A stretch of 64,000 nucleotides of DNA. It comes from Actinomycetota bacterium (GTDB lineage: Bacteria; Actinomycetota; UBA4738; CALAEC01). The notes under the pieces were generated by a model. It worked only from the letters and a program-made list of their open reading frames with translations. It made no database searches and was not told the DNA's origin. The translations under genes were made by a program, and so were the position numbers. The stretch is taken from NCBI GenBank assembly GCA_036001425.1, contig DASYUI010000035.1, positions 1,756 through 65,755 of the forward strand, in the 5' to 3' direction. Shown piece after piece: positions 6,085 through 35,300 of this stretch. Position 1 is the stretch's first letter. Each line of letters opens with the position of its first letter.

Positions 6085-8994
6085 GTGGCGTATCCCCAGC
6101 CACACATCGTTCCGGCGAGGATCCGCGTTCCCGCGACCCGCGGACTCCGGCGTGAGCGCCTACTCGGCGCGCTCGACCGGCTCTGGGATCATCGGTTGGC
6201 CCTGGTCGTGGCGCCGGCCGGATCGGGGAAGACCACCCTCCTGTCGCAGTTCGCGTCGGCACTGGAGGGCCCGGTCGCCTGGTACACCGCCGACGGATCC
6301 CACGCCGAGCCCAGTGTGTTCCTCAGCCATCTGGAGCAGGCGGTATGCACGGCCTTCGGAGACGTCCCCCGAGGGTGGGAGTCGGAGGACGCGGCGGCCC
6401 AGTCGCTCGAAGGCTGGGCGGGCACCAGAGGCCTGGTGGTCCTGGACGACCTTCACGCGCTGGAGGGGACACCTGCGGAGGCGGCCCTCGAGCGACTGAT
6501 CGACTACATCCCACCGAACGTGTTCGTTCTGGCGGCTTCCCGCCGGACTCCGGGGTTCAACCTCTCCAGGCTGCGGGTCTCCGGGGCACTCCTCGAGGTG
6601 GGCTCCGACGACCTCCGGTTCCGATCGTGGGAAGTCGAGCGCCTGTTCCGCGACATCCACGGCGAGCCGCTCACCCCTGAGGATCTCGCCGCTCTGACAC
6701 GAGGAACCGAGGGCTGGGCGGCCGGCCTCCAGCTGTTCCACCTGGCGACTCGCGGGAAACCGGTGCACGAGAGCAGGAAGATCCTGGCCGAGTTGCGCAC
6801 GCGATCTCGCCTGGTCCGCGAGTACCTGGCGAGGAACGTCATCGACGAGCTCCCCGAGGCCCTTCGGGCCTTCCTCCTGGATACGTGTGTGCTGGACCGG
6901 ATGTCGGGTCGCTTGTGCGACGAGCTCCTGGGCGTCTCCGCCAGCGAGCTGGTCCTGGAGGAGCTGGAGCGCCGCCAGATCTTCACGTACGGGCTCGAGG
7001 AGGGGTGGTGGCGGTACCACGAAGTGCTGCGGTCACATCTCCAGGTCCAGCTCGTCCAGACGGTCGGCGAGGCCGAGGCTCGGGAACGATACCGGCGAGC
7101 CGGGGAGCTCCTGGAGACGGCGGGCGCGGTGCGGGAGGCCCTGCAGGCCTTCTGCCGCGCGGAGGACTGGGACGCGGTCGACCGGCTCCTGGGGAAGGAA
7201 GGCGAGCTTCTGGCCGATGGTCCCGACGGGTGGCTGGATCTCGTTCCCTCGGACCTCCGGGAAGACGACCCGTGGGTCCTCCTTGCCGCCGCCCGCAGAG
7301 AGAGAGCCCGGGGCAGGTGGCACCCCGCTCAGGAGGCGTACCAGAAAGCGGAGCGGGCGTTCGGGGGTGCCGGCGCGGCGGAGATCTGCCGCGCAGAGCG
7401 CCAGGCCCTGACCTCCTGGATGGAACCGGCATTCGTCCCCATCGACACTCCGTCGGGGGCCGTCCGAGCCGCGGTCTCGCGCGAGCCGCTCCGGGCGAAG
7501 GGATCGTGGCCCGGCGCTCAGGGGGCCCTTGCCCGAGGGATCTGCTCTCTGCTCGCCGGCCAGGTGCTGGACGCCAGACCCGTTCTTCTTTCGGTCGGCG
7601 ACCACCCGGACGCCAGCCCGAGCCTGGTGGCGGGAGCCCGGCTCGCTGCCGCCCTGGCGGCCATGCTGGCCGGTGACCCTGGTGGCGAACGCGAAACCGA
7701 AGCTGCGGCCGAGGAGGCCGAACACCTGGGTATCCTCTGGCTGGCGCGCCTGAGCCGAGCCTCTCTGGCCCTGTCGGACCGCCCCGACGGAGCGTCCGAA
7801 GCGGCGGCGGCTCGGTTGGCGGGCGAGCGCCGGGGCGACCAGTGGGGAACCTCCCTGGCCGCGCTGCTCGAGGGCATGGGGGCGCTCCGGATCGGCGGGA
7901 GCCCGACCGCCGTCCTGGACGTGGCCGTTCAGGGGTTCCGTCACCTGGGTGCGGGGACGCTGGAGGCCTGGGCCCGATCCGCCCATGCGCTGGCGGTGGC
8001 GCGGACCGGAACACCCGAGGCCCGGCAGACCGCTCTCCAGGCTGAGACCTTCGCCCGGGCCGCCATGGTTCGGGGCGCGCAGATGATCGCCTTCCTGGCC
8101 CTGGCGCAGGCTGATCCCGCTCGGGAAGGTGAGCACCGAGCCGTCGCCATGGAGATCGCCAACGAGTGCGGTCTTGCGTTGCCAGAGCCTCCGAGTGCCA
8201 CCCAGGCTCCGTCGGCCCCGTTCCAGATCTGGTGCTTCGGGAGGTTCTCCCTGACGATCGACGGAAAAGCGGCGGACCTGTCGAGCCTTCGGCCACGGAT
8301 CCGCAGGCTGCTTCGGCTCCTGGCCATGGGCGCCGGAGCCCCGATTCATCGAGAGGTCCTCACCGAGGCCCTGTGGCCGGGGGCCGACCCCGAGACCGGT
8401 GGCCGGAACCTCCACGTCGCGATCTCCACGCTCCGGCGCGTGCTGGAGCCGGACCTGCCCAAGGGTGCCGGCAGCCTCATCCTCCGCGAAGGTGAGACCT
8501 ACCGCTTGGCGCTGCCGGAGGACACCTTCGTCGACGTGCTGGAGCTCGATGACCGCTTGGTCGCCGCCCGGGGTGCCCTGGCCCGGAAGGACGCGGAGAC
8601 AGCACTGACGGAGTTCCGCCGGGCCATGGCCTTCTACGTCGGGGACCTGCTGCCGGAGGAGGGGCCCGCCGAGTGGATCGTGGGAGAACGGGAGCGGAGG
8701 CGCCTCGACGTCTCCGAGCTCGCCGGGGCCCTGGCCGAAGCGTTATTGGTCGCGGGCGAGCCCGGCGAGGCCGCGTGGGTGTGCCGGCGGGGTCTCCAGG
8801 TGGACCGGTACCATGATGCCCTGTGGCGCACGCTCGTCCGCGCCTGCGACCAGGCCGGCGACCCCGTCGCCTCAGCCCGGGCGGGCCGCGACTACCAAGC
8901 GCTTCTCCTGGAGCTCGGGCTCCCGCCGTCCTCGAACAGCCAATCGGAGTCTGACGTGGGCGTCGACCCCGACCGGGCTCTTAACAGCTCTTAG
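6085..8994 (+). CDS. MalT-like STAND ATPase with C-terminal SARP module (OmpR-type wHTH + BTAD)
   Basis: Walker A 'VVAPAGSGKTTLLSQFA', Walker B 'LVVLDDLH', and MalT-like 'TEGWAAGLQLF'. The central part is Ala/Leu-rich and TPR-like. C-terminus has 'FQIWCFGRFSLTIDGKAADL...REVLTEALWP...LHVAISTLRRVLEP' (wHTH) and 'DRYHDALWRTLVRACDQAGDPVASARAGRDYQALLLELGLPP' (BTAD). GTG 6085 is preceded by GGAGGAAAG. The ORF-track start at 6004 is an alternative. Confidence 0.85.
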   Translation: MAYPQPHIVPARIRVPATRGLRRERLLGALDRLWDHRLALVVAPAGSGKTTLLSQFASALEGPVAWYTADGSHAEPSVFLSHLEQAVCTAFGDVPRGWESEDAAAQSLEGWAGTRGLVVLDDLHALEGTPAEAALERLIDYIPPNVFVLAASRRTPGFNLSRLRVSGALLEVGSDDLRFRSWEVERLFRDIHGEPLTPEDLAALTRGTEGWAAGLQLFHLATRGKPVHESRKILAELRTRSRLVREYLARNVIDELPEALRAFLLDTCVLDRMSGRLCDELLGVSASELVLEELERRQIFTYGLEEGWWRYHEVLRSHLQVQLVQTVGEAEARERYRRAGELLETAGAVREALQAFCRAEDWDAVDRLLGKEGELLADGPDGWLDLVPSDLREDDPWVLLAAARRERARGRWHPAQEAYQKAERAFGGAGAAEICRAERQALTSWMEPAFVPIDTPSGAVRAAVSREPLRAKGSWPGAQGALARGICSLLAGQVLDARPVLLSVGDHPDASPSLVAGARLAAALAAMLAGDPGGERETEAAAEEAEHLGILWLARLSRASLALSDRPDGASEAAAARLAGERRGDQWGTSLAALLEGMGALRIGGSPTAVLDVAVQGFRHLGAGTLEAWARSAHALAVARTGTPEARQTALQAETFARAAMVRGAQMIAFLALAQADPAREGEHRAVAMEIANECGLALPEPPSATQAPSAPFQIWCFGRFSLTIDGKAADLSSLRPRIRRLLRLLAMGAGAPIHREVLTEALWPGADPETGGRNLHVAISTLRRVLEPDLPKGAGSLILREGETYRLALPEDTFVDVLELDDRLVAARGALARKDAETALTEFRRAMAFYVGDLLPEEGPAEWIVGERERRRLDVSELAGALAEALLVAGEPGEAAWVCRRGLQVDRYHDALWRTLVRACDQAGDPVASARAGRDYQALLLELGLPPSSNSQSESDVGVDPDRALNSS

Positions 8995-11098
8995 AGCGGA
9001 ACTCGATCTCCGTCAGCGACAGCGCGTTCCCTGCCTGTCCCTCGTAGACGGAATCGATCCGGATATCGATCCTCTTGGTCCCGGCGCCCGAAACCTCCAC
9101 GGGCTGGGGTGCCTTCGTGTCTCCGAGCGTCTCCTTCTCGGTCGCAACGACCCGTCCCCTCGCGTTGATGAACCTCATGGTGATCTCGGCGGGCCGCGGC
9201 TGCTTCGCGAAGCTCTGAGGCGTCTCCTGGTTGCCGGTGGTGAAGATCATCTGGGCGATGTCAACGGGTTCGTTGAAGAGGATCGAGATCCTCTCGCCGG
9301 TTCCGTCACCCGGACCCGATTCCGCCCAGTGGGTGTTGTTCCCATCGTCGATCAAGAGGCTGGCGGGATGTCCTTTCTGCCCCGGGGCCTCTGCGCGGAG
9401 GGCATGGACGGGATTGAAGTCCGGGAAGGCACGAATCTTCACCGCGCAGTACGCACCCTGGACCCCGGAAAGGATCGCCCCTCGCGCGCTCGGGATGACC
9501 ATGCCGCCCGCCAGGCCCAGCAAGGCCAGGACGGCGACGAGCATCCGCAGCTTCCCGAGCATGCCCAGGATCTGCCGGAAGCCGCGCCTCGCGGTCTTGC
9601 CCTTCTGGCCGGCCTTGGCTCGGCCCCGCCGGGTACCGGCCGCCATGGGCTTACGCCCGAAGATCCGCTTATACCAGGGGACCTTCTTGGCGACCTCGGC
9701 CGCCAGCAGCGTGTTCGCGCACCGCCGGCAGAACTTCCGATCGCGGTCGTTGACCTCACCGCACTGGCCGCAGATGAGGTCGCCCGGCTTGGGCTGCCGG
9801 GTCGGCTCCATCTTCACCTGTTGCCTGGCGCGCTTTTCCCTTTGCGCGGCGGGCTTCTGGGCCCCAGGTGTCCGGGCCGCCACGTCCGGGGTGGGAGCCG
9901 TGGGGGGCTTGGCCACGAGCGCCGCCGCCCGATCCGTCCGCTCCTGCTCCTCGGCCTCGGCCAGGAGGCGCCGGGCCTCCTCGTCCTCGCGATGCCGCTG
10001 TGCCTCTTCTTCGGCGCGCTTCCTGGCCTCGGCTTCGGCGCGCTTCCTGGCCTCGGCTTCCTTGCGGGCCTTGGCCACGGCCTCCGCACTGGCCACCATG
10101 GATGCCGCCTGGGAGCGCCGCCGCTCCTCCTCGGAAGCCGCCTGGGTGCGCCGCTGCTCCTCCTCGGAGGCCGCCTGGGAGCGCCGCTGCTCCTCCTCGC
10201 GGGCCTTGCGCTCGGCCTCCTCACGCTGCTTGGCCTCGAACTCCTGGCGGGCCTTGGCCTCCGCTTCTTGCCGCTGCTTGGCCGCCTCCTCCTCACGGAC
10301 CTTGCTCTCGGCCTCCTCACGGGCGTTACGCTCCGCCTCCTCACGAGACCTGCGCTCCGCCTCATCACGCTGGCGGCGGGCCTCCTCCTCGGTGAGCCTG
10401 CGCTCCGCCTGCTCGCGCTCCCTGGCCTCGGCCTCCTCACGGGACTTGCGGTCGGCCTCCTCACGGGACTTGCGGTCGGCCTCCTCCCGGGCCTTGCGCT
10501 CGGCCTCCTCGCGCTCCCGAGTGACCTCGGGGGTCTCGACCTCCGGAACGACCACGGCCAGCTCGGGCTCCGCGGTCTTCACCGACGTGTCCTCAGCGGA
10601 CGCGGCCGGGGCCTCCCCCGTGGACGCCGCGGCCGGCATGGGCCGGGTCACGTCCCGCCGGGGAGGCTCGATCCGTGGCGACCCCGCCGGTTGCGACGGG
10701 CTCACTGTGGGTGCTGTGCCGGAAGCACCCTGCCGTTCCGCGGCCGTGTCCGGTGGCCCGGTTCCTGTCGGGGCAGCCGGTTCGGCATCAACCACAGGGG
10801 TCTCAGGAGCACCCTCGCCGGCGCCGCTCTCCGCGGCGGGCTGCTCAGTGGGCGGAGCCTGCGGAGTCGTTCCGGTCTGTCCGTCGGGCTGGTCTTCGTC
10901 GCCGATCCCCAGGGTGGACTTCACGCGATCCATGAACCCCGCCTTTTCGGGCTCGGGTTCGGGCTGGGATTCGGGCTCGGGTCCGGGCTCCTGCTCCTCG
11001 GTCAGCCTCTCTCCGGCCCACTCGAGAAACGTTCCGCACGAGCCGCAGAACGCGTCGTCGTCCTCGTTCTGGTAGCCGCAGTTCTTACAGATGATCAT
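8981..11098 (-). CDS. zinc-ribbon / charged coiled-coil / zinc-ribbon / TM / discoidin-like (galactose-binding-like) membrane protein; last gene of the CIS operon
   Basis: N-terminal 'CKNCGYQNEDDDAFCGSCG'. About 200 aa of E/R/K/A repeats ('EAERKAREEADRKSREEA'). Second ribbon 'CGQCGEVNDRDRKFCRRC', a basic stretch, then TM 'LRMLVAVLALLGLAGGMVIP'. C-terminal 'LLIDDGNNTHWAE...ISILFNEPVDIAQMIFTTGN...IDIRIDSVYEG...LSLTEIEF' looks like F5/8-type-C. Its ATG overlaps the stop of the gpI-like gene (ATGA at 11095-11098). Confidence 0.85.
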   Translation of the reverse strand: MIICKNCGYQNEDDDAFCGSCGTFLEWAGERLTEEQEPGPEPESQPEPEPEKAGFMDRVKSTLGIGDEDQPDGQTGTTPQAPPTEQPAAESGAGEGAPETPVVDAEPAAPTGTGPPDTAAERQGASGTAPTVSPSQPAGSPRIEPPRRDVTRPMPAAASTGEAPAASAEDTSVKTAEPELAVVVPEVETPEVTREREEAERKAREEADRKSREEADRKSREEAEAREREQAERRLTEEEARRQRDEAERRSREEAERNAREEAESKVREEEAAKQRQEAEAKARQEFEAKQREEAERKAREEEQRRSQAASEEEQRRTQAASEEERRRSQAASMVASAEAVAKARKEAEARKRAEAEARKRAEEEAQRHREDEEARRLLAEAEEQERTDRAAALVAKPPTAPTPDVAARTPGAQKPAAQREKRARQQVKMEPTRQPKPGDLICGQCGEVNDRDRKFCRRCANTLLAAEVAKKVPWYKRIFGRKPMAAGTRRGRAKAGQKGKTARRGFRQILGMLGKLRMLVAVLALLGLAGGMVIPSARGAILSGVQGAYCAVKIRAFPDFNPVHALRAEAPGQKGHPASLLIDDGNNTHWAESGPGDGTGERISILFNEPVDIAQMIFTTGNQETPQSFAKQPRPAEITMRFINARGRVVATEKETLGDTKAPQPVEVSGAGTKRIDIRIDSVYEGQAGNALSLTEIEFRSKSC

Positions 11099-23086: not shown

Positions 23087-25177
23087 CTACAGGCGCGGCG
23101 GGCCATCCAACGCCTCGCTTGTCGACACCAGGTGGAAATATGGTCCGAACTCCGCCTCCACGCACAACCGCCCGAGCTTGCGGTACTCGCGCTGGACCCC
23201 TCGGATGAGGTCCTCCACCGAAACGGATCTCTCCGCGTCCGCCGCCAGGTACGCAGCCGTGACGCAGATGTTCCGGATGTTCCCACCGGAGAATTCGAAG
23301 GACTTGGCCAGGAAATCGAGGTCCAGGTCTCCCTCCCTGGGGACCTCCGGGCTCAGGCACTTCTCCCACAGCGAACGGCGATGTCTCTCATCGGGCATGG
23401 GGAAGTCCACGATGACGTCGAGCCTTCGGGTGAACGCCTCGTCGAGGTTGGCCCTCAGGTTGGTGGCCAGGATGGCCATCCCCTCGAAGGTCTCCATCCG
23501 CTGCAGCAGGTATGCCACCTCGATGTTGGCGTAGCGGTCGTGGGCGTCCTTGACCTCGGACCTCTTTCCGAACAACGCGTCCGCCTCGTCGAAGAAGAGG
23601 ACGCCGTTGACACCCTCCGCCTCGGAGAAGATGCGTTCGAGGTTCTTCTCGGTCTCTCCGATGTACTTGTCCACCACGGTGGCCAGGTCGATCGTGTAGA
23701 GGTCCAGCCCGAGCTCGCCGGATAGCACCTCCGCGGCCATGGTCTTCCCGGTCCCGGACTCACCCGCGAACAGGGCCGTGATCCCCCCGCCCCGGCCGCC
23801 CCCCTTCCGCATCCCCCACTCCCCGAGGACGCGCTCCCGGTACCGCGCCCGGGCGGACAACTCGTGGAGGTGAGCGAGGGTATCGGCCGGGAGGACGATG
23901 TCTTGCCACCCAACCGCCGGCTCGATCCGGCGGGCCAGCCTCTCCAACCCAGCGGCGTTCTGGGCCCGGGCCCCCGCCCTGAGGTCGGTCGGGTCAATGG
24001 ATCGGCCGGCGTAGGAGGCTCGCAGGCGAGCGGCCGTGGCCGCCCTGGCCACCTGTTCGGGGCCGAGGCGGAAGGGGGTCATGACCGCCGCCGCGTCCAG
24101 CTCCTTCGGGGTGTCGCCGTCGAGGTGGGCCCGCCACATGCCGGCTCGCTCCTCCGGCCCGGGGAGGCCGACGTCGACGACCAGCGGGATCTCCCGTGAC
24201 CACATGGGGTCCCAGTTCCGTGTCCCGGTGATCACCACGGGCCAGGGGATCTCGGCGAATGCCCGCACGCCGAGCGCTCCGCGCTCCACGACCTGTTCGA
24301 CCGGCCCCACCACCAGACCAGCCCCTCGCAGGCCCGCCTCGCGCCCCGCCGCTGCGGCGATGGCGGTGGGGTCGTCGTCAACGGTCAGTCGAGCCAGGTC
24401 GAGGGCCAGCGTGGGGATCCCCATCCCGGCGAAGGCGGCCGCGGCAAGCCCTCGTCCCGCGCCCGCCAGCCGCTCCCGCAGGTAGCAGAGCCGCGCGCCC
24501 TCGGCGATGGCGCGAGCCAGGGCCTCCCCGTCTTGCTCGTCCCAGCTGATCGGAGAGGCCAGGAGTGTGGTGAGCGCGTGGTCGGGGCGGTCGTCGCCCA
24601 AGAGATGAGCCGCGACCCGGTCCGGGACCCGCAGGGTCCGCGTGAGGAACGGCCGATCGGGGTCCTCCACCAGGATGAGCCCCGCCTCGACCAGAGGGCT
24701 TCCCCCCTGTAGCCTTCGCCGGGCGCGGGCGTCGGCCGGTGAGGCTCCGCACAGTTCCAGAGACAGGCCCACGCTGGCCCGCCGGCGGGTCACGTCGTCG
24801 TGCAGATACCCGTAGAGGCGTTCGAACCGCGCGTCGAGGTCCGGCGCCAGCGAAACGAGGAGAAGCTCGGCATCGAGGGGCTCGAGATCGAAGGTCTTTG
24901 CCAGGCGCCGGAGCCGGATGTCCTCTCCCTCGGCCTCAGCGGTGTCGGCGGCCTTCTCCACGCGCGACAGGTCCTCGGCTGCCGCGGGATCGGGCGGGGG
25001 CGGTGGGGCCGGGGCATCCAGGAGCTGGTCGACCTGCTCTTCCGTGAGGTAGAGACCACGGAAGGGGTCGTCGGGTTCCGGGTCTCCGGCCCGGCGGCGG
25101 TTGACTGCCGCCTTCACGCGAGCCTCCACGACGGCCAAGCGACCCAGGAGGTGCTCGAGCGATGGAGACGGCTTCAT
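23087..25177 (-). CDS. AAA+ ATPase (Afp15-like)
   Basis: Walker A 'FAGESGTGKTMAAEVL', Walker B 'VLFFDEADALFGKR', and 'ILATNLRANLDEAFTRRLD'. ATG 25177 overlaps the DUF4255 stop (ATGA). The ORF-track extension to 25624 is Arg/Pro-rich, a frame artefact. Confidence 0.9.
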   Translation of the reverse strand: MKPSPSLEHLLGRLAVVEARVKAAVNRRRAGDPEPDDPFRGLYLTEEQVDQLLDAPAPPPPPDPAAAEDLSRVEKAADTAEAEGEDIRLRRLAKTFDLEPLDAELLLVSLAPDLDARFERLYGYLHDDVTRRRASVGLSLELCGASPADARARRRLQGGSPLVEAGLILVEDPDRPFLTRTLRVPDRVAAHLLGDDRPDHALTTLLASPISWDEQDGEALARAIAEGARLCYLRERLAGAGRGLAAAAFAGMGIPTLALDLARLTVDDDPTAIAAAAGREAGLRGAGLVVGPVEQVVERGALGVRAFAEIPWPVVITGTRNWDPMWSREIPLVVDVGLPGPEERAGMWRAHLDGDTPKELDAAAVMTPFRLGPEQVARAATAARLRASYAGRSIDPTDLRAGARAQNAAGLERLARRIEPAVGWQDIVLPADTLAHLHELSARARYRERVLGEWGMRKGGGRGGGITALFAGESGTGKTMAAEVLSGELGLDLYTIDLATVVDKYIGETEKNLERIFSEAEGVNGVLFFDEADALFGKRSEVKDAHDRYANIEVAYLLQRMETFEGMAILATNLRANLDEAFTRRLDVIVDFPMPDERHRRSLWEKCLSPEVPREGDLDLDFLAKSFEFSGGNIRNICVTAAYLAADAERSVSVEDLIRGVQREYRKLGRLCVEAEFGPYFHLVSTSEALDGPPRL

Positions 25178-25890
25178 CGGGAATCGCGGGAGCGGGTGCT
25201 CCTTCCGGCCTTCGCCTGCTTCCCGGCCGGCTTTCGCTCCTCTTCCTTCTCCTTCGTAGCGTCCCCGTTGCCGGACAAGGTGCGCTGCACCCGACCACCT
25301 GCCTGGTCTCGCGTGCCTTCTGGGCCGGCGAGCTTGACGACGGGCTCCGCGAGCACCGGCGGGCCCGCCTCGACCATCCGGCGGGGGTCGAACGGCGCGG
25401 TGATCACCAGGTCCAGTGAGGGCTTGAGCTCTCCGCCAAGTGCGGACCAGACGTCGGAGAGGTTTCGGTCCTTGGGGGGCGGCAGCCCCACCTGAGAGAT
25501 GACGGCCAGCGGCTGGTCGGCCAGCGATCCGACGAGCACGTCTCGAGGCAGCGCGTCGCGACGGAGGAAGCAGGTCAGCACCGCCGCAAGGAGCCGGTGC
25601 TCGTCCTCCGGACGCTGGGTCCACGCGGTGAGGAGATAGGAAAGCTTGAATCGCCGAGGAGGCGGCCGTCGTTCGGTCACCCGGCCGGTCTTGTCCCTGA
25701 TCTCCTCGTACTCGACCTGGCGCCGCTCGAGGTCCTCCCGGATGTCGTACAGGTAGACGCTGACCGTGGGACTGTTGCGGCGGGCCGCCCAGTCCTTCGT
25801 CGGCGCGTCGAACGTCACCTCGACGTCGGCGCCGTTCAGCGCCTCGCGCCGGATGAGGTTCCGGAGCGCCTCATCGACCTCGTGGATCAT
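25174..25890 (-). CDS. DUF4255 / Pvc16-Afp16-like tail terminator (cap) protein
   Basis: 'MIHEVDEALRNLIRREAL...VEVTFDAPTKDWAARRNSPTVSVYLYDIREDLERRQ...FKLSYLLTAWTQRPEDEHRLLAAVLTCF' is the typical Pvc16 N-terminal domain pattern. Confidence 0.85.
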   Translation of the reverse strand: MIHEVDEALRNLIRREALNGADVEVTFDAPTKDWAARRNSPTVSVYLYDIREDLERRQVEYEEIRDKTGRVTERRPPPRRFKLSYLLTAWTQRPEDEHRLLAAVLTCFLRRDALPRDVLVGSLADQPLAVISQVGLPPPKDRNLSDVWSALGGELKPSLDLVITAPFDPRRMVEAGPPVLAEPVVKLAGPEGTRDQAGGRVQRTLSGNGDATKEKEEERKPAGKQAKAGRSTRSRDSR

Positions 25891-26032: not shown

Positions 26033-26659
26033 CTAGATCAGTCCCTGCCGAAGTGCGAAGGCGACCGCGTGGGACCGGTTGCGCAGATGGAACCGGGTGG
26101 TGATGTCGTGGATGATGTTCTTGATCGTCCGCTCCGAGTACGCGAGCTGCTGGGCGATCTCCGCGGTGTCCATTCCTTCGGCCACGAGCTTCAGCACGCC
26201 GAGCTCCCGCTCGGTCAGGCCCGAGAAGGTAAGACCCCGAGGAGCCAGCACATGACGCTGGAGCCTGCCCACCTGAGACAGCAAGCGTCCCAAGAGGTCA
26301 GGTGGAACGGTGCCATCGCCCTGGGCGGCCGCGACCACTGCCCTGGTCAGGATCTCAGGCGTGGCTTCCGAGCGCCGAAGGAGCCCACAGGCGCCCGCCT
26401 CGACCGCCGCCACCAGGCCACCGTCGTCGGGCCGGGCCACGACCAGGACCACCCGAGGACCGCCGCTGCGCTGGATGGCCTTGATGACCCGAAGGGTCTC
26501 ATCGTCGACCTCGTCCGCGGCGACGACCGCGACATCGGCCTGGTCGACCTCGGTCTCGCTCAGGACTTCGAGCTCAGGGCGTCCGCGAAGCTCGGCCGCG
26601 ATCCCCGCCTGTGAGATCGGGTCTCGCGCATAGACGAACACGGGTACGCGCTCCGTCAT
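26033..26659 (-). CDS. LuxR/NarL-family regulator with degenerate (pseudo-)receiver domain
   Basis: C-terminal HTH 'LTERELGVLKLVAEGMDTAEIAQQLAYSERTIKNIIHDITTRFHL'. The N-terminal REC-like fold starts 'VFVYARDPIS', where NarL has 'LLIDDHP'. Confidence 0.85.
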   Translation of the reverse strand: MTERVPVFVYARDPISQAGIAAELRGRPELEVLSETEVDQADVAVVAADEVDDETLRVIKAIQRSGGPRVVLVVARPDDGGLVAAVEAGACGLLRRSEATPEILTRAVVAAAQGDGTVPPDLLGRLLSQVGRLQRHVLAPRGLTFSGLTERELGVLKLVAEGMDTAEIAQQLAYSERTIKNIIHDITTRFHLRNRSHAVAFALRQGLI

Positions 26660-26735
26660 TTCCCCTCCTCCTCCTGCTCAGGTCCGTCGGGCATCCTAGG
26701 AGGGCAATCTTTCCGGGCACTTCACCTGGGCTTAA

Positions 26736-26766
26736 CGGGCATGGGAAGTTGCCCGGATGTTCTCCT
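26736..26766 (+). promoter_or_regulatory. conserved element CGGGCA-N8-TGCCCGGATGTTCTCCT (copy A)
   Basis: 23 fixed positions are identical to copy B at 32185..32215. It lies in the divergent region between the LuxR gene and the 26814 operon. Confidence 0.5.
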
Positions 26767-26813
26767 CGGTGGCTCTAAAGGGCTATTGACCTGCCTGGTA
26801 GTATCCTCGCGTC

Positions 26814-28097
26814 GTGGGCGCGACTGCCATGCTGCGGCCGGCCACCATTCGCGTGGATCCTGGCGGAGAGACCAGCTTCGACATCAGCGTTCGAAACACT
26901 GGGACGATTGTCGATGAGTTCTCCTTCGAGATCCGCGGGGATCCGGCTCCCTGGGCCGAGGTCGAGCCGGGGGTCCTCCGGCTGTTCCCCGGCGCGGAGG
27001 GGATCGTCACGGTCAGGTTCCGCCCTCCACGGACGCCGACGACGCGGGGGGGTCTCACACCCTTCGGCGTGAAGGTCATCTCCAAGGAGGACCCCGAGGG
27101 CACGATCGTCGAAGAGGGGACCCTCGAGGTCGGCGAGTACAGCGACAACAACGTGGAGATGATCCCCCGGACCTCCCGCGGGCGGATGGGCGCCTCTCAC
27201 GACGTCTACATCGACAATCGCGGGAACCAGCGGGTCAGCACGACCATCGACGCCACCGATCCCGACGACAACCTCCAGTTCCAGATCAGCCCGCCGTCGA
27301 CGACGGTCGACCCGGGGAACGCCACTCGGGTGAGGGTCCGGGCCCAGCCGAAGAAGCGGTTCCTCCGAGGAGCGCCGAAGACACATCCGTTCAAGGTGAT
27401 CGTCCAGCCGGAGGGCGACCAGGCCCTCCAAGCCGACGGCACCATGCTTCAGGAGCCGCTGATCCCGAAGTGGCTCATCCCGGCGCTGCTCGCCCTGGCG
27501 GCGCTGGTGCTGATCTGGTTCTTCCTCCTCAAACCGGCGGTTGAGACGGCAGCTGTGAGCGCCGTCCCCAAGAACGTCGCCAAGAACGACGAACTGGCCG
27601 CCGCCGAGGAGCGGATGAACGAGGCTCTCGCAGCCCAGGCCGCGGCGGCCGAGAAGCAGGCCAAAGCATTGCAGAAGCAGATCGACGAGCTGGCGGGTGG
27701 GGCCGCGGCCGGCGAAACCAGCGACCAGCGACTCGACCCCAGCAACGAGGCGTTCCTGGACAAGAACAACTTCGAAGCGTCGTTCACCGTCCCCAAGGGC
27801 AAGACCCTCAAGATCACCGACCTGGTCCTGCAGAACCCCGCGGGAGCGACCGGACGAATCCTCATCATCCGTGATGATCTGGTGGATGACGCGAAGGACG
27901 CCACGCTCCTCGTGTCAGCTCTCGAGAACTTCCGAGACCTCGACTACCATTTCGTGACTGCGGTGGAGATCGGGGAGGGTCAGAACCTGCTGGTGAGGGT
28001 GACGTGCGACAAGCGCGCCGGACAGACAGTCGCCGAGGCCCAATCCGCCTGTAATCAGGCGGCCGTGTACTACACCGGTTCTCTGGCCAAGGCGTAG
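26814..28097 (+). CDS. bitopic membrane protein: two Ig-like (CARDB/NEW3-like) N-terminal domains, one TM, coiled coil + beta-rich C-terminal domain
   Basis: 'ATIRVDPGGETSFDISVRNTGTIVDEFSFEIRGDPAPWAEVEPGVLRLFPGAEGIVTVRFRPP' and 'VYIDNRGNQRVSTTIDATDPDDNLQFQISPPSTTVDPGNATRVRVRAQP'. TM 'WLIPALLALAALVLIWFFLL'. There is no N-terminal signal peptide, so the N-terminus is probably cytoplasmic. GTG start; ATG 26829 is an alternative. Confidence 0.8.
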   Translation: MGATAMLRPATIRVDPGGETSFDISVRNTGTIVDEFSFEIRGDPAPWAEVEPGVLRLFPGAEGIVTVRFRPPRTPTTRGGLTPFGVKVISKEDPEGTIVEEGTLEVGEYSDNNVEMIPRTSRGRMGASHDVYIDNRGNQRVSTTIDATDPDDNLQFQISPPSTTVDPGNATRVRVRAQPKKRFLRGAPKTHPFKVIVQPEGDQALQADGTMLQEPLIPKWLIPALLALAALVLIWFFLLKPAVETAAVSAVPKNVAKNDELAAAEERMNEALAAQAAAAEKQAKALQKQIDELAGGAAAGETSDQRLDPSNEAFLDKNNFEASFTVPKGKTLKITDLVLQNPAGATGRILIIRDDLVDDAKDATLLVSALENFRDLDYHFVTAVEIGEGQNLLVRVTCDKRAGQTVAEAQSACNQAAVYYTGSLAKA

Positions 28098-28099
28098 CC

Positions 28100-29731
28100 G
28101 TGCGGCTCCGCAGCCTCTCCCTTGCCCTCCTCCTCAGCGTCTTCCTAACCGGGCTGGGACTCCCGATGGCCGCGGCCGACCCATCCGATCCGACGCCCGA
28201 CCCAACACCGACTTCGGACCCGACCCCCAGCCCGGATCCCTCCACCGATCCGACCCCGGACCCCCAGCCGACCGTGACTCCGCCCGACGACGGTGGGGCG
28301 GGAGACAACCCTCCCCCCACGCCCCCTCCCGATCAGGACGGCAAGGACGGCAAGAGCGGCAAGGGGAAGCACGGCCAGAACGGCAACCGGGACGGGAAGC
28401 GGAAGAAGGATCCGTTCGCCATGGCCGGGCCGCAAAACACGGCCACGCTCGTGTCTCTGCTCGCCGAGCTGACCCAGCGGGGAATGTCCCTCGAGAAGGC
28501 CTTCCTCAAGGTGGTCGGACCCTTCCCCGTCGCGGGCCTGGCCTGGTGGAGCGACGACTGGCACGCGCCCCGGTGTTGCCCCTTCCCGCACCTCCATCAG
28601 GGCCTCGACATCTTCGCGCCGATGGGCACCCCCTTGGTAGCGGCGGCGGATGGGTACATCAGCCAGAAAGTCAATTCCCCCTCGGCTACAGGGTTCGGCC
28701 TCGAGGTCACCGACGCCCGGAACGTCCAGTACTTCTACGCGCACCTATCGGCCTTCGAACCGGGCATCGAGGTAGGAACCCACGTCGAGATGGGCCAGGT
28801 CATCGGGTACGTGGGTGACACCGGGAACGCCCGGGGGACCATCCCCCACGTGCACTTCGAGCGCCAGCCAGACGGCGTTCCGGCCCCGCCCAAGCCCTGG
28901 GTCGACCGGTGGCTCAGGATCGCCGAGCGGAAGGCCATGCTGCTCGTGCAGGAGGTCACGGGGAGGAAGCCCAAGGTGGAGCGCCTGACCTTCCGGCTCA
29001 CCAGACTGTTCGACCTGGTCGATGCGGAGCGCACCGACCTCGACGACGCGGCCACCGGGGACGCCGGGGAAATCCTCGTGCTGACCGGCCTCCATCCGGC
29101 TGCCACGTACGACATGGCTCGGGACACTGCCGGGGCCATGGCCTGGGAGATCGACTGGGGCGACGAGGCCGTCGACCAGATCGCCACCGGGATCAAGGCG
29201 TATCGGCAGGAGTTGACCGAGCAGACGCTCATGGGCATCCTCCACGATCCCGAAGAGGGGCAAACGGCGATCCCAGCGGGCGGGATGCTTCCCGGAAGCG
29301 AGGATGTGGGCCTGGCCGAAGGCATCGGCGATCCAATGGCACCCGTCGCCACGGAGAGCGGCGCACTGGTCAACGTGCCCTCCGTTCCCGGGGGCGTGAG
29401 CGCGCACGACGGGACCGGCACGGAGGGCAGCCTCCCTGTCGGCGCGCCGGGGGCCCCGGTCGCGTCGGGCAGCCAGGTCGCCGATACGGGCACCGGCTCT
29501 TCGGTTCCCTCGATCGGCAGGGAGAGCGACACGTCGAGCTCATGGAGGGCGGGTGTCGGGCCCGGCCTGGTCAGGGTCCTTGCCCTCTACAGTGCGTTCT
29601 CGACCGGGCTCCCGGGCATGACCCAGACCCTGTGGCACGAGATCCTGGCGGCGGTGCAGGATGAGGGCGCACGCGGCCTCCTGGGAAACGAGACCGAGGC
29701 CCAGTTCCCGGCCGCCGCAGGAAGGCCCTAG
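28100..29731 (+). CDS. secreted M23 family metallopeptidase
   Basis: Signal peptide 'MRLRSLSLALLLSVFLTGLGLPMAAA' and a DPTP-rich linker. M23 motifs 'HQGLDIFAPMGTPLVAAADG' and 'GDTGNARGTIPHVHFE'. The GTG lies 2 nt after the upstream stop. Confidence 0.9.
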   Translation: MRLRSLSLALLLSVFLTGLGLPMAAADPSDPTPDPTPTSDPTPSPDPSTDPTPDPQPTVTPPDDGGAGDNPPPTPPPDQDGKDGKSGKGKHGQNGNRDGKRKKDPFAMAGPQNTATLVSLLAELTQRGMSLEKAFLKVVGPFPVAGLAWWSDDWHAPRCCPFPHLHQGLDIFAPMGTPLVAAADGYISQKVNSPSATGFGLEVTDARNVQYFYAHLSAFEPGIEVGTHVEMGQVIGYVGDTGNARGTIPHVHFERQPDGVPAPPKPWVDRWLRIAERKAMLLVQEVTGRKPKVERLTFRLTRLFDLVDAERTDLDDAATGDAGEILVLTGLHPAATYDMARDTAGAMAWEIDWGDEAVDQIATGIKAYRQELTEQTLMGILHDPEEGQTAIPAGGMLPGSEDVGLAEGIGDPMAPVATESGALVNVPSVPGGVSAHDGTGTEGSLPVGAPGAPVASGSQVADTGTGSSVPSIGRESDTSSSWRAGVGPGLVRVLALYSAFSTGLPGMTQTLWHEILAAVQDEGARGLLGNETEAQFPAAAGRP

Positions 29732-29735
29732 TCGG

Positions 29736-31811
29736 CTACCGGTTCACGAACTTGGGCGGCTGCCCTGTCGCCGGAGTGACCATGAAGTCGGCTTCCGCGA
29801 GTACCCCGGGTCCCTTGGCGCGCAGGAGCCTCGGTCCGGTGATGTCATTGTGGAAGACCAGCACCTGGCCGACGATGTTCCCGTCGACATCCGACACGAT
29901 CTCGAACCGGCCGAGCCCTGGCTTCCACTTGAGGACGATCGTCCTCTCCGGCGGGAACAGGCTCCCCTCCACGAACGGCACGAACCCGGGTGGCCCGATG
30001 TTCGGGCTCAGGGATACGATCGGCTGGAAGCCGCCTCCCAGCAAGAGTGCGGTGTCCGCTGCCGGTGATTTCGCTCGAGTGACCGCGAACAGTGCCGAGC
30101 GGACCCCCGAGGCCTTCGGGCGGAACTGGACGCCGACGAAACACTCCTCCTCGGGATGGAGCCGCACGTTCGAGCAGCCGTCGGTGTGGATGATGAAGTC
30201 GCCGGGGTTACCGGGGCCCAGTACGTCGATGGAAGCGATAGTCACCGGCCCGTCTCCCTCGTTCGCCACGCTCACGAGCTGTTCCGGGCTGGTCGTGGTG
30301 ACGATCCGGGTGTCGAACTGGATGGGGATCGGATCGATCTGGACGGTCGGCTGACGGTCGCGCACGAAGACGTCCTGGACATCGTTCCTGTCGCATCCCG
30401 CGTCGCAGATTCCGTCTTCGTTCGAGTCTTGTCCGATGAGATTCGATGCGGTCGACACGAAGGCCACGTACTGTCCGGAGTCCGAGGCCGCCGGATCACT
30501 ATTCACGCTCCGCGGGGGGGTCTCGTCGCCGTCGGCGCTGATGGAGACTCGGTTGGTCCGGCCAACGAACTGGTCGCGGACGTAGACGTCCTGCGCTCGG
30601 TTCGTGTCTCCCCGCCGAAGGGTCGAAGCCAGGGACTCGAACGCCACGTATCGGCCATCCGCGGTCATGTCGGGGTCCGTGCTCCGACCGTTTCCCGGAT
30701 TCCCGTTGGAAGCCACCGAGGCCTTGATCGTCGTCTCCGCGCTCCGGTCACGGATGAAAATGTCCCGGACACCGGACGCTGGGAGCGTCTCCAGCAACGG
30801 GAGCATGTTCGTCGCGTCGCTGGCGAAGGCCACCCATCGACCGGCCGCGTCGATGGTGGGTTGGACGCTCGCGCCGTTGGCCTGGGCCTCGGAGGTGCTG
30901 ATCGACACCCGTGAGGTGCTCTGCGTCGCGAGGTCCCTCAAGTAGATATCGCTGACGTTGTTGGTATCTGCCCCGATGAGATTGGTTGCCGTGCTGCTGA
31001 AAGCCACGAGCTGGCCGTCGCCCGAAAGCGCGGGGTCCACGCTGTCGTCGTCGCCAGCGGCACCGCTGGCCCCCGACGCCCGCGACGCAAGCTGCGTATC
31101 CACCAACCCGGCCTCGTCGTAAACCCCGTCGAGATCGGTGTCCCGGTCCCTGACGAACACATCGAAGTTGTCGCTGGTCTTGGCGGGGTCGAGGTCGTCG
31201 GAGTTGCTCACGAAGGCCACGAACCGCCCGTCCGCCGAGAGGTCGGGCTGGGTGTTGGAGCTGGAAAACCTCCCGTCGTCGTCCACGGAGACCATCACCG
31301 TGGCCACGCCACGGGCCTCGTCGAAGGTGCCGTTCCGGTCCGTGTCCCGGTCGCGGACGTACACGTAGGGCCCCCCGCAAAACTCGGAGCAGTCGGGTAT
31401 GAAGTTGGTGGCCTCGGACACGAAGGCAACGAAGCGACCATCGGCGCTGATCGCTGGGGAGTTGGAGTCGCCGTTCCCCTGCTCTCCACTGGTCAATACG
31501 GAGACCCGGACGGTGGTCCCAGCCGTGATGTCCCGGACGAATACGTCCTCGACGCCGTTCGAGTCTTCGGGGACGAGATTCGACGCGTCCGTAGCGAACG
31601 CAACCCATTGGCCGCCCGCCGAGATCGCCGGCTGAGCGCTGCCCCGGTTGGCCTGGTCTTCATCGGAGGACAGGGAAGCCAGGAACGTCGTCCCGGGGCC
31701 CTCGGACCGTGCCTGGCTCACGAACAGGAGCGACGCCACCAGGGCCAGGACGAGCGGCAGTCCCATCCTGGCTCGCCGGGAAAGGGCGCGTTTCCGCTGG
31801 CCCGGGGGCAT
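29736..31811 (-). CDS. secreted PD40/TolB-like beta-propeller repeat protein with C-terminal Ig-like (choice-of-anchor-D-like) domain
   Basis: Repeated 'S.SADGR[FYW]VAF.S.A.NL...D.N...DV[FY][VL]RD' blocks. Signal-like 'RKRALSRRARMGLPLVLALVASLLFVSQA'. Start is ambiguous (31766, 31811, 31886 or 31907). Confidence 0.85.
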   Translation of the reverse strand: MPPGQRKRALSRRARMGLPLVLALVASLLFVSQARSEGPGTTFLASLSSDEDQANRGSAQPAISAGGQWVAFATDASNLVPEDSNGVEDVFVRDITAGTTVRVSVLTSGEQGNGDSNSPAISADGRFVAFVSEATNFIPDCSEFCGGPYVYVRDRDTDRNGTFDEARGVATVMVSVDDDGRFSSSNTQPDLSADGRFVAFVSNSDDLDPAKTSDNFDVFVRDRDTDLDGVYDEAGLVDTQLASRASGASGAAGDDDSVDPALSGDGQLVAFSSTATNLIGADTNNVSDIYLRDLATQSTSRVSISTSEAQANGASVQPTIDAAGRWVAFASDATNMLPLLETLPASGVRDIFIRDRSAETTIKASVASNGNPGNGRSTDPDMTADGRYVAFESLASTLRRGDTNRAQDVYVRDQFVGRTNRVSISADGDETPPRSVNSDPAASDSGQYVAFVSTASNLIGQDSNEDGICDAGCDRNDVQDVFVRDRQPTVQIDPIPIQFDTRIVTTTSPEQLVSVANEGDGPVTIASIDVLGPGNPGDFIIHTDGCSNVRLHPEEECFVGVQFRPKASGVRSALFAVTRAKSPAADTALLLGGGFQPIVSLSPNIGPPGFVPFVEGSLFPPERTIVLKWKPGLGRFEIVSDVDGNIVGQVLVFHNDITGPRLLRAKGPGVLAEADFMVTPATGQPPKFVNR

Positions 31812-32094
31812 GCCTCCGGGCAGGGTGGAGCTGCCTTCGCCACGCGAAGGCCGGGATCCCTCGGTATGCGGGCCCATCAGGTCCATGCTCGCCGCAATGC
31901 CCCCCAACCCGGCAGAGGAGCCAGTGTAGCCCCTGGGGCAAGGGCCGGTTCCCCATGGGGCAGGTCAACCCTCGGCCGGATCGTGCTCAGCACGCCGCCG
32001 AAGGCGACCCGGTGATCGCCCAACACCCAGAGGTCACGGCTCCGTTATCCCGTCCCCGATGGGACGAGGTGATCAACTTAGTCATATCGGGCTA

Positions 32095-32123
32095 TTGAGC
32101 AACTTCTGCGCGGCCCGTAGTCT
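32095..32123 (+). promoter_or_regulatory. sigma70-like promoter candidate for the RTX gene
   Basis: TTGAGC (32095-32100), a 17-nt spacer, then TAGTCT (32118-32123). This would give a 5' UTR of about 250 nt containing element copy B. Confidence 0.3.
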
Positions 32124-32184
32124 CGTCTTTCCGACCTGGCCACCTGAATGAGTCATTCATCGCTCGCGTCTCCGGATGTCCGAA

Positions 32185-32215
32185 CGGGCAGCGCTTCCTG
32201 CCCGGATGTTCTCCT
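32185..32215 (+). promoter_or_regulatory. conserved element CGGGCA-N8-TGCCCGGATGTTCTCCT (copy B)
   Basis: Identical arms, 8-nt spacer and 17-mer as copy A. An extra CCGGATGTC lies 30 nt upstream (32172-32180). Confidence 0.5.
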
Positions 32216-32378
32216 TGTTGCCTCTGAGGTGAGCCACAATCGGCCAGTACGCTCAACCCAAGTGGTTGCTCAGGTTTCTGTTCGCTTGCCGTCAGGCGGC
32301 CGGACCGTCGTGCCCGGAGCCGCCATTTCCTTTGATCCATCGAGCGGGACCTTTGGCCCGCGAAGGAGGTCCCCGTAG

Positions 32379-35300
32379 ATGGCTCTCAGTCACAGGCTCC
32401 GCTCTTCTGGACGCACCCGTCTGGTTGCCGGCTTGGTCGTCACAGCAGCGGCCTTGGCCTATTCCCTGATCCTTGCTCCACGGGCATTCGCCGTCAGCAG
32501 CTGCAGCAACGATGGTGCCGGCAACCTCTTCGTGATCCTCAATGCGGCTGGTGACGACGCCAGGGTCGTGCTGCTCGCCGGGACCATCCAGGTCTTCGAC
32601 GCTCCGGCTGCAGACGGTACGGGCGGCACGCTGCTCGCATGTGGAGGAGCGACTCCCACCACGTCCAACATCAACACCATTCACTTCGTGTATGGGGGCG
32701 GGAACGGGGGGGACGAGCTCGTCTCCATCGACATGTCGGGCGGGGCCTTCCTCGACGCCACACCAGTCGGAGAGGGCGATCTCACTGAGGAGATCGAGTT
32801 CAACGTTCCCGACATGGGTCTGGGGGCCGACGCCCTCGTCATCATCGGCGGGGCGGGAGCTGACCGGATCACATTCGGAGCCGCGGGCATCAACCCGAAC
32901 ACCGATGCGAGCCCTCCTCCTCCGCCCTCTCCCCCCGACGACTCTGACGTGGACATCTTCCTGGCCAGCCCAGCCAATACCGAGACACACCGTGTGGACG
33001 CGGGGGCGGGCGCGGACGTCATAAGCGGCGCCGGAGACGCGGTTACGGGAGGCGCCTTCGCTTCGCCGCTCACGTTCGACGGAGGGACCGCTAACGACAC
33101 GCTGACCGGTGGCACCGCGGCCGACAACCTGTCGGGTGCGGCAGGCGACGACACCCTCAACGGTGGAACCGGGGCCGACACGCTCTCCGGAGGAGACAAC
33201 AACGACACCATCAGCGGCGGCGACGGCGCGGACGTCCTCGATGGGGGGAACGGCGACGACGACCTTACGGGGAACGAGCAAAACGATGCCATCGATGGGA
33301 GCGCCGGCGACGACGATCTGACTGGCGGTAACGGCGACGACACCCTCGACGGGGGGGCGGACGCCGACACGGTCAACGGTAGCGATGGGATAGACGTCCT
33401 CAGCGGAGGATCGGGGGGCGACACCGTTTCCGGAGGACCGGGCAACGACACCCTGGCCGGAGGACCGGGCAACGACACCCTGGCCGGTGGCGGCGACAAC
33501 GATACCGGCGATTACTCCGCCGCAGCGGGAGCGGTGACGGTCAACCTGACCACCGGTGTCGGTACGGGCGAGGGCGCCGACACGCTGACGGAGATAGAGA
33601 ACCTGACCGGCTCGGCCTTCGCCGACTCCCTCACCGGGGACAACAGCGTTGCGATCGGCAACCTGCTCCAGGGGGGCGCGGGCAACGACACCCTCGACGG
33701 AGCCGCCGGCACCGACAACGTGTCGGGAGGTTCCGGGAACGACACGCTCGACGGTGGTCTCGGGGCCGACACCTTCGCCGGGGGCTCCGAAACCGATACC
33801 GCTACCTATGCGGCCCGGGTGGCCACGGTATTCGTATCACTCGACGGCTCCCCCAACGACGGAGAAGCCCTTGAGGCTGACAACGTTGGGCTGGACATCG
33901 AACGAGTCGTCGGCGGCAGCGGCGACGACGAGCTGACCGGCGGAAGTGGCAACGACACGCTGGAGGGAGGACCGGGCCAGGACACGCTCGTGGGAGGAGC
34001 GGGTAACGACAGCTTCGACGGCGGCACCGGACTGGAAGACAAAGCCGACTACAACGCCGCCACCGGTTCAGTCACGGTGGACCTCTCCTTGGGAACCGCC
34101 AGCGGACAGGGCTCCGACACGCTTAGCGCCGTCGAAAACGTAACGGGTTCTCCCTTCGCCGACACTCTTGTCGGCGACAGTGTCGCCAATGACCTGTTGG
34201 GCGATGCCGGCAACGACACGCTGGTCGGCAGAGCGGGGAACGACGGCCTCGACGGAGGCCTCGGCACCGACACCGTCGACTACTCCTCTGCCGGGGGGGT
34301 CACGGTCAATCTGGCGACCGGGACCTCAACAGGCGACGGCGCGGACACCTTGACCTTGATTGAGAACGTCACCGGGTCTCCGGCCGACGATGTGATCACC
34401 AGCGACAACCTCACGACCAACACCAATCTTCTCTCCGCTGGGAACGGAAACGATGCCGTCGCTGGTGGCGATGGGGTGGAGATCATCCTCGGAGGAGCCG
34501 GCAACGACGTGCTCAGCGGCGGGGCCGAGAACGACAACATCGACGGCGAGCAAGGCCTTGACACTATGAACGGAGGCTTGGGTAACGATTCACTGGACGG
34601 TGGCGACGGCAACGACTCTCTGACAGGCGGAGCGGGCGACGACCCCCTCGACGGCGGCGCCGGAACCGACACGGCGTTCTACTCAGGCGCTGGAGCCCCG
34701 GTGAACGTGAACCTGGCCGCCGGAACGGCAACGGGCGGCGACGGGACCGACTCCCTCTCCCTGATCGAGAACGTAACCGGCTCTACCTTCGGCGACACCC
34801 TGACTGGCGACGGAGGGAACAACCTCCTTGCTGGAGGTGCGGGTGCCGACAACATGTCCGGGGCTGACGGCGACGATAGCCTCAACGGAGGACCGGGCCC
34901 CGACACCATGGACGGCGGAAACGGCGCCGACAGCCTCAACGGAGACACCGAGAATGACACACTGGTCGGCGGCGCCGGGAACGACTCTCTCGTCGGCGGG
35001 CTGCATATCGATTTCGCCGACTACTCGGGCTCCTCCTCTCCCATGACCGTGAATCTCGGGGCCGGGTCCGCTACCGGACAAGGAACGGACACGCTCGCCG
35101 GCGTCGAGAATGTCCTGGGTTCCGCCTTCGACGATGTCATCACCGGTGACGGACTGGGGAACGAACTCTCCTCCCTTGGCGGTAACGACGTCGTGGCGGG
35201 GGCCCTGGGCAACGACACGCTCTCCGGTGGCGGCGGAATCGATAATGTCGATTTCTCACCTTCGGCCACCCCAGTCACGGTCAACCTTGGGGCGGGGTCC

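Follow-up and report, generated by a model that had tools for sequence, protein, structure and literature searches.

Introduction

The closest described relatives of the locus considered here belong to the contractile injection system (CIS) of Streptomyces coelicolor, in which Sco4256, Sco4257 and Sco4258 each have one transmembrane (TM) segment, resemble one another at the N-terminus and end in ricin domains (Casu et al. 2023, PMC10066040); they have been named "CIS-associated effectors" in that work and "putative toxin" in another (Vladimirov et al. 2023, PMC10020575). In Sco4256 the TM segment is located at about residues 219-250, after domain 1 (Vladimirov et al. 2023, PMC10020575). These proteins are toxic when expressed in Escherichia coli, and their triple deletion in S. 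coelicolor leaves the tube lumen empty and prevents CIS-dependent death (PMC10066040); in addition, Sco4256 co-purifies with the CIS particles (PMC10066040, PMC10020575). Homologues of Sco4256 are present in most class IId clusters, including those of other actinomycetes, Chloroflexi and cyanobacteria, and about one third of them carry lectins (PMC10020575). Another membrane protein, CisA, is needed for the firing of CIS-Sc (Casu et al. 2025, PMC12237407). The subject of this report is a gene for a 427-amino acid (aa) membrane protein and the M23 peptidase gene that follows it, both located beside a CIS cluster in a 64,000-nucleotide (nt) stretch of DNA from an Actinomycetota bacterium (GenBank assembly GCA_036001425.1, contig DASYUI010000035.1, positions 1,756 to 65,755), called the window throughout. 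On sequence grounds the 427-aa protein is a member of the Sco4256/4257/4258 family and is probably a CIS-associated component acting at the cell envelope.

The Sco4256 family has already been published, together with its architecture, its occurrence outside Streptomyces and its restriction to CIS loci; what is particular to the present locus is the lineage-specific coupling to an M23 gene and the membership in a branch of the family that ends in a jelly-roll domain with the motif NFRDLDYH and that is accompanied by a regulator, a conserved upstream element and a partner of the PD40 type.

Relationship with the Sco4256/4257/4258 Family

In BLASTP the 427-aa protein is 38% identical to Sco4256 (Q9L0N5) over residues 7-247 (245 residues, E 3e-53), with the TM helices of the two proteins aligned, and in tblastn it retrieves all three paralogues of the S. 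coelicolor-type locus at about 1e-50. The comparison loci were those of a Streptomyces-like genome (G216) and of an S. coelicolor-type record. A search of the Streptomyces-like genome with the family profile A1 gave two tandem open reading frames (ORFs) beside the sheath gene (E 4.5e-84 and 1.3e-82), whose matches span profile positions 5-272 only; these ORFs end in ChW and Ricin_B domains and share 37-39% identity with the 427-aa protein over its residues 7-247 (BLASTP, E 3e-53), and the CisA of the same genome shares 64% identity with its S. coelicolor counterpart. A homology search from a Streptomyces-like ORF and a subsequent cluster look-up led to Q9L0N5_STRCO ("Hydrolytic protein", 479 aa); the order of its locus (sheath / 956 aa / eCIS_core / ChW / Ricin / Ricin / AAA / Pvc16_N / GerE / LAL) is that of SCO4253-4263, and Q9L0N5 is therefore Sco4256.

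The likeness is not limited to pairwise identity, since both architectures consist of a tandem immunoglobulin (Ig)-like module with a TM helix at about residue 220, both share their Foldseek/HHpred neighbours, and both genes belong to a IId-type CIS locus with an SCO4261-like GerE regulator, Pvc16_N and an AAA ATPase. In particular, the HHpred list for Sco4256 domain 1 is the same set as that obtained here with Foldseek (Vladimirov et al. 2023, Supplementary Data 5, PMC10020575). In contrast, the Streptomyces proteins have ChW or ricin lectin C-termini in place of the helix and NFRDLDYH jelly-roll found here, and the present gene is in single copy, divergent from the regulator and followed downstream by the M23 gene. 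The membership of the 427-aa protein in the family can be regarded as established for the Ig and TM core; as judged from the alignments, this conserved core is formed by a pair of ASH/PapD-like Ig domains in tandem, with one TM helix immediately behind them, and the part after the membrane is interchangeable.

Architecture and Topology of the 427-aa Protein

The AlphaFold2 (AF2) model, built on an alignment of 64 homologues, has a mean predicted local distance difference test score (pLDDT) of 91.7, and its domains are listed in Table 1. The initial annotation had proposed a protein with one TM helix and without signal peptide, and on both points hydropathy and AF2 agree: the top Kyte-Doolittle window of 19 residues starts at residue 221 (2.84), and the hydropathy profile of the protein has neither a second TM-grade segment nor a hydrophobic stretch at the N-terminus. 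The two beta-sandwich domains of that annotation are recovered by AF2 as well, though not specifically as CARDB/NEW3-like; they are of the ASH/PapD/Cep192 kind, the sole Pfam match in the protein being a Cep192_D3 (ASH/PapD-clan) Ig domain and the Foldseek neighbours being FAP47 (7sqc) and other ciliary ASH-domain proteins, the SPD-2 domain of CEP192 (7ptb), protein 4.2, transglutaminase beta-barrels, 2qsv, RbmA and the chaperones of chaperone-usher systems. The coiled coil and the beta-rich domain that had been placed past the TM helix correspond to the helix of residues 259-293, a possible coiled coil, and to the beta domain of residues 301-426.

An orientation with the N-terminus inside and the C-terminus outside (N-in/C-out) is favoured by three signs, namely the absence of a signal peptide, the extracellular type of the modules carried by the paralogues (ricin, ChW) and a conserved Cys pair. 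The Ig domains are placed in the cytoplasm presumptively, and the sequence signals disagree on this location.

Table 1. Features of the membrane protein/M23 gene pair and of the neighbouring CIS genes, in window coordinates.
Feature	Position	Strand	Basis or remarks
427-aa membrane protein, Sco4256/4257/4258 family	26814-28097	+	GTG start; ORF, translation, BLASTP
Ig-like beta-sandwich 1, residues 1-106	26814-27131	+	AF2, pLDDT 92-98; Foldseek
Ig-like beta-sandwich 2, residues 112-213	27147-27452	+	Pfam Cep192_D3 residues 127-203, E 2.6e-08; AF2
Single TM helix, residues 221-250 (hydrophobic core 221-239)	27474-27563	+	AF2; Kyte-Doolittle
Long Ala/Glu/Lys-rich helix, residues 259-293, possible coiled coil	27588-27692	+	AF2, pLDDT 51-83
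C-terminal jelly-roll beta-sandwich, beta domain residues 301-426	27714-28091	+	alignments A1, A2; AF2
M23 metallopeptidase, 543 aa	28100-29731	+	GTG start; ORF, translation
Signal-like N-terminus of M23 protein	28100-28177	+	hydrophobic
M23 domain	28592-28882	+	Pfam PF01551 residues 165-261, E 1.2e-19
M23 C-terminal extension, about 280 aa, helical then Gly/Ser/Pro-rich	28883-29731	+	without family match
Conserved upstream element	26712-26766	+	direct repeat CTTCAC/CTTAAC (11-bp phase), then AACGGGCA-N8-TGCCCGGATGTTCTCC
LuxR/NarL-type (GerE) regulator, SCO4261 counterpart	26033-26659	-	Pfam GerE, E 3.2e-13
Cis16/Pvc16_N, ORF overlapping AAA ATPase	25174-25890	-	assigned via similarity to relatives
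AAA ATPase	23087-25624	-	CIS cluster member
CisA homologue, 705 aa, slot directly after Cis12	8981-11098	-	domain layout; BLASTP; tblastn
Secreted PD40/TolB-like propeller protein with choice-of-anchor-D Ig domain	29736-31907	-	Pfam PD40; NCBIfam choice_anch_D residues 518-610

The C-Terminal Jelly-Roll Module

Residues from about 296 to 427 form an eight-stranded jelly-roll, for which an AF2 model of the domain alone reaches a pLDDT of 87.7 and a predicted template-modelling score (pTM) of 0.80. The NFRDLDYH motif is invariant in this domain (alignments A1 and A2), and the conserved Cys pair consists of C398 and C413; exactly two Cys residues are present in the domain in 59 of the 64 family members. 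The module is unrelated to the ChW and ricin lectins of the Streptomyces proteins. Lectin- or toxin-like domains were sought in the C-terminus with no Pfam match, a PDB sequence search with the profile of the domain gave chance matches only (E >= 0.18), and Foldseek found generic jelly-rolls only, at a TM-score of about 0.4-0.55, these being nucleoplasmin cores, the carbohydrate-binding domain of BcsB, CBM6, PHM and viral capsid jelly-rolls. The CisA family has a conserved extracytoplasmic C-terminal domain of about 150 aa, glycan- or solute-binding-like, and a kinship of the jelly-roll with that domain of the CisA homologue of the window was discarded (hhalign probability 0.9%). When 1.84 billion cluster representatives were searched with the profile, 678 were found to carry the jelly-roll domain, 539 of them with an E value of 1e-10 or lower; it nearly always forms the C-terminal end of a protein of about 400-460 aa. 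The NFRDLDYH jelly-roll proteins are a coherent and sizeable branch of the family.

The CisA Homologue of the Window

The initial annotation had compared the architecture of the 427-aa protein with that of the Streptomyces firing adaptor and had proposed a comparison with it as a check; the sequence part of this comparison was run and does not bear out the resemblance, the match being instead to the Sco4256 family. The query was residues 1-310 of S. coelicolor CisA, taken from the AlphaFold3 (AF3) model file in the eLife supplement (PMC12237407), and the 427-aa protein has no similarity to it in BLASTP (E 0.67), so that it was rejected as a CisA homologue. No Zn-ribbon is present in the 427-aa sequence, and the PWWRRLFG-type juxtamembrane feature of CisA is found instead in a 705-aa protein of the same window. 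The latter is the real homologue: its layout comprises a Zn-ribbon, a long disordered/charged region, a second Zn-ribbon, one TM helix and an NADase-type glycan-binding (discoidin-like) domain, and it matches CisA residues 1-310 at E 6e-12 in BLASTP, across Zn-ribbon 2, the PWW/YxR(L/I)FG motif and the TM segment, and a Streptomyces-like CisA orthologue at E 2e-17 in tblastn, C-terminal domain included. Its gene also occupies the tail-fibre slot downstream of cis11/cis12, where the 427-aa gene is not found.

CisA (SCO4242; Casu et al. 2025, PMC12237407) and the 427-aa protein have in common a single-pass organization, a size of about 430-470 aa, the lack of a signal peptide, a folded domain that follows the TM helix and the location in a IId CIS locus. 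They differ in the N-terminus, which in CisA consists of two Zn-ribbons around a disordered region in place of the Ig domains, and in the position of the gene, which follows the baseplate genes only in the case of CisA. By these comparisons the parallel with the firing adaptor is attached to the wrong gene.

A side observation concerns the Streptomyces-like genome G294 (G294:C1:1498500-1534500; L095/L096), in which CisA, Cis12, Cis11, spike and tube genes are present; the sheath gene is absent and no Sco4256-family gene was found genome-wide, and this CIS cluster is apparently degenerate or truncated.

The Gene Pair and Its Genomic Context across Species

The source is a high-GC metagenome-assembled genome of 1.63 Mb, 67% complete, whose contig C35 is the window. 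A class IId-type CIS is encoded on the minus strand, and besides the members reported in Table 1 it includes a DUF4157/eCIS_core protein, the sheath, tube proteins, a VgrG-like spike, Baseplate_J (Cis11) and Tail_P2_I (Cis12). The 427-aa gene is located beyond the ATPase/Cis16/LuxR end of this cluster, outside the sheath-ATPase interval, and is the one copy of the Sco4256 family in this genome, versus three in S. coelicolor. Both ORFs of the pair are present as first described, and the 2-nt gap between them was read directly, with the TAG stop of the 427-aa gene at 28095-28097 and the GTG of the M23 gene 2 nt later; likewise, the divergence of the pair from a LuxR-family gene was confirmed by the GerE gene on the minus strand. 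A public gene call places the start of the membrane protein at ATG 26829, which gives 422 aa; GTG 26814 was retained because the family consensus N-terminus MGAxAxL (64-member alignment) matches the VGATAML of the 427-aa protein.

The context was studied by a scan with one genome per species, which gave at least 180 relatives with the exact motif; the best 80 of these were examined and belong to Acidimicrobiia, many Actinomycetes (Micromonospora, Cellulomonas, Amycolatopsis, Pseudonocardiaceae, Nocardioides), Chloroflexota, Dormibacterota and others. CIS structural genes are found within 10 kb in 38 of the 41 species loci whose flanks reach at least 9 kb on either side and in all five long metagenomic contigs inspected (5/5), and the co-occurrence with CIS loci that had been put forward as a check of the initial annotation is thus borne out. 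The gene of the membrane protein is a true and conserved accessory of this type of CIS.

Two layouts can be distinguished. In the first, which is that of the window, the family gene lies at the Cis15/Cis16 end, about 120-320 bp from the GerE gene, which is transcribed divergently (37/80 loci); in two more of the 80 loci the regulator is 2.3-2.5 kb upstream. In the second, the family gene is at the baseplate/CisA end, where it has a CisA-like gene as neighbour and diverges from a PD40-type gene. In many Actinomycetes the order in this second layout is baseplate genes, CisA-like gene, PD40-like gene (divergent), family gene and GerE regulator (L023, L025, L034, L036, L045, L053, L070, L075 and others), and this recurring order indicates that the CisA-like, PD40-like, Sco4256-like and GerE genes travel as an accessory module. 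In loci other than those with M23, the downstream gene encodes an AIM24 protein, unannotated proteins of 378-667 aa or, in Chloroflexota, a PD40 homologue.

In the window the PD40 protein gene is convergent on the M23 gene. The C-terminal domain of the 427-aa protein was compared with the PD40 protein and the candidate kinship was discarded (hhalign probability 0.2%). Of 49 loci with flanks of 5 kb or more, 37 have near the family gene a relative of the PD40 protein, or its last about 90 aa fused to other proteins; examples are L015:11689-13452 and L025:7849-9795. The 21-kb S. coelicolor-type stretch searched, from the sheath to the LAL regulator, contains no match to it. The PD40 protein is a possible extracytoplasmic partner of the membrane protein.

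The M23 Peptidase

The M23 gene had been described as starting 2 nt after the stop of the membrane-protein gene and as encoding a secreted type of peptidase, and both statements stand, the latter in the light of the Pfam match (E 1.2e-19) and of the signal-like N-terminus. The zinc/catalytic motifs are intact, HQGLD at 166-170 (HxxxD) and HVH at 250-252 (HxH), and the protein is predicted to be active and secreted. NCBIfam gives weak matches to DD-endopeptidases of the ShyA, MepM and DipM type, all far below the equivalog cut-offs. With these proteins (M23, LytM/lysostaphin-type) the window protein shares the M23 domain, the HxxxD and HxH motifs and the export signal, and it differs from them in a long linker rich in Pro, Thr and Lys, in the C-terminal extension of about 280 aa and in the coupling to a CIS-family gene. 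A similarity of the extension to the PD40 protein was looked for and not found.

In three of 87 related loci (L002, L003, L009) an M23 gene comes after the membrane-protein gene, and the membrane proteins of these loci are 69-78% identical to the 427-aa protein. In these close relatives the 2-nt gap is kept, and the C-terminal extension is conserved in these three only; the M23 protein is a lineage-specific add-on, being restricted to them, and is not a component of the CIS at large. The part in lysis or wall remodelling that the initial annotation had suggested for it is a candidate role. A literature search on M23 together with CIS turned up no description of such a coupling.

The Regulator and the Upstream Element

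The regulator of the window is 50% identical to the GerE gene product beside Pvc16_N in the S. coelicolor-type locus. The gap between the LuxR-type and membrane-protein genes holds CGGGCACTTCACCTGGGCTTAACGGGCA-N8-TGCCCGGATGTTCTCC, with GGGCA-N8-TGCCC at 26737-26754, and this is the TGCCCG-type element that had been attributed to the pair, now found to be conserved upstream of orthologues. A near-identical block, AACGGGCA-N8-TGCCCGGATGTTCTCCT, is located at 32186-32215 (GGGCA-N8-TGCCC-type core 32186-32203), upstream of the gene for a 2099-aa repeat protein, and CGGGCA repeats also precede the sheath and Cis16 genes. The 12-mer ACTCAACGGGCA, with at most two mismatches, is present in 25 of 38 orthologous LuxR/membrane-protein gaps versus 0.8% of shuffles; its copies are mostly at about 95-100 nt from the gene and are followed by an N8-10 spacer and TGCCC, and the element is found in Actinomycetota and in some Chloroflexota. 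The 427-aa gene is probably part of the CIS regulon.

A scan for sigma-70 promoters and terminators over 26600-32400 gave nothing above shuffles. A TAnnnT hexamer 6-9 nt before the start codon was seen by eye in many gaps (window 26790-26816; L010, L015, L040), and no Shine-Dalgarno sequence was seen ahead of GTG 26814 (window 26790-26816), which suggests a leaderless mRNA for the membrane-protein gene. The position of the hexamer, the lack of a Shine-Dalgarno sequence and the MGAxAxL N-terminus together support GTG 26814 over ATG 26829.

Proposed Mechanism and Alternative Explanations

The explanation preferred here, to which a probability of about 0.72 is given, is that the 427-aa protein is a component of the CIS-associated effector family acting at the envelope and accompanied in this lineage by an M23 peptidase. 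By homology with S. coelicolor, the protein would be associated with the CIS particle through its conserved Ig module; once CisA-dependent firing has taken place at the cytoplasmic membrane, it would act on the envelope via its TM helix and a wall-facing C-terminal module, and this action may contribute to regulated cell death. The M23 DD-endopeptidase, presumably Sec-exported and translationally coupled to the gene in this lineage alone, would most likely weaken peptidoglycan within the same expression unit. The data show the homology, the architecture, the linkage to the CIS, the conservation of the upstream element and the intact catalytic motifs of M23; we infer the loading onto the CIS, the topology, the envelope damage and any cooperation with M23.

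Several points weigh against this explanation. The term "effector" is itself an interpretation in Streptomyces, where the data also fit a membrane-side role, and the function is extrapolated to the present lineage from S. coelicolor, with a C-terminal module unlike the lectins of the experimentally studied proteins. Of the 87 related loci, 84 have no M23 gene, and this gene is therefore not required for the general function of the family. Moreover, the positive-inside rule is reversed, with a mean K+R of 0.94 on the N-side of the TM helix versus 2.75 on the C-side, and K+R is higher on the C-side in 53 of the 64 family members; an ordinary N-in/C-out insertion is thus not assured, and the reversed charges could be noise or reflect insertion by an unusual route.

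The main alternative is that the 427-aa protein is a dock or trigger, resident and bitopic, whose cytoplasmic Ig domains bind baseplate or sheath alongside CisA and which is not cargo at all. A strong single TM helix without signal peptide would suit such a role, as would the fact that conservation covers precisely the TM helix and the putatively cytoplasmic Ig module, the outer module being variable as one would expect of an adaptor, and the position of the gene at the CisA/baseplate end, beside a CisA-like gene, in many genomes; the deletion phenotype in Streptomyces, a phenocopy of the delta-CIS strain, does not discriminate between cargo and dock. However, the window already has a bona fide CisA homologue, the flanking charges do not support N-in, and the toxicity of Sco4256-4258 alone in E. 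coli also speaks against a dock; the tube lumen of S. coelicolor that is empty without Sco4256-4258 and the co-purification of Sco4256 with the particles favour cargo. The Streptomyces phenotypes exclude a docking role only partly, and on the whole it is considered rather unlikely.

The gene pair could also be read as a two-gene unit for wall remodelling independent of the CIS, in which a membrane regulator positions or activates M23 in an EnvC-like or SpoIIQ-like manner, in agreement with the 2-nt gap conserved in three close relatives, the intact M23 of exported type and the weak matches of the jelly-roll to carbohydrate-binding folds (BcsB, CBM6). The linkage statistics make this pair very improbable, since the family is CIS-linked in 38/41 loci and in several phyla with M23 adjacent in 3/87 only; furthermore, the Streptomyces homologues of the N-terminal module are required for CIS function and the promoter bears the CIS-locus element. 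A different combination, judged doubtful, is a coupled lysis device, in which, in this lineage, the wall-facing jelly-roll would recruit or activate a co-translated and exported M23 so that CIS firing leads to local peptidoglycan cleavage and lysis, the charges reflecting a CIS-driven, non-Sec insertion; if true, it would represent a holin/endolysin-like logic driven by a contractile machine.

Conclusions

The annotation of the window is corrected in that the firing adaptor, i.e., the CisA homologue, and the effector-family protein are separate genes at opposite ends of the cluster, and the M23 coupling is a minor, lineage-specific curiosity. Outside Streptomyces, the Ig and TM core bears an uncurated NFRDLDYH module that is widespread (678 cluster representatives, at least 180 species genomes), and this branch has a constant association with an SCO4261-like regulator. 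The upstream element as candidate operator, the PD40 protein as candidate partner and the occurrence of relatives in culturable hosts are handles that allow asking whether the proteins of this family are cargo or membrane-side components.

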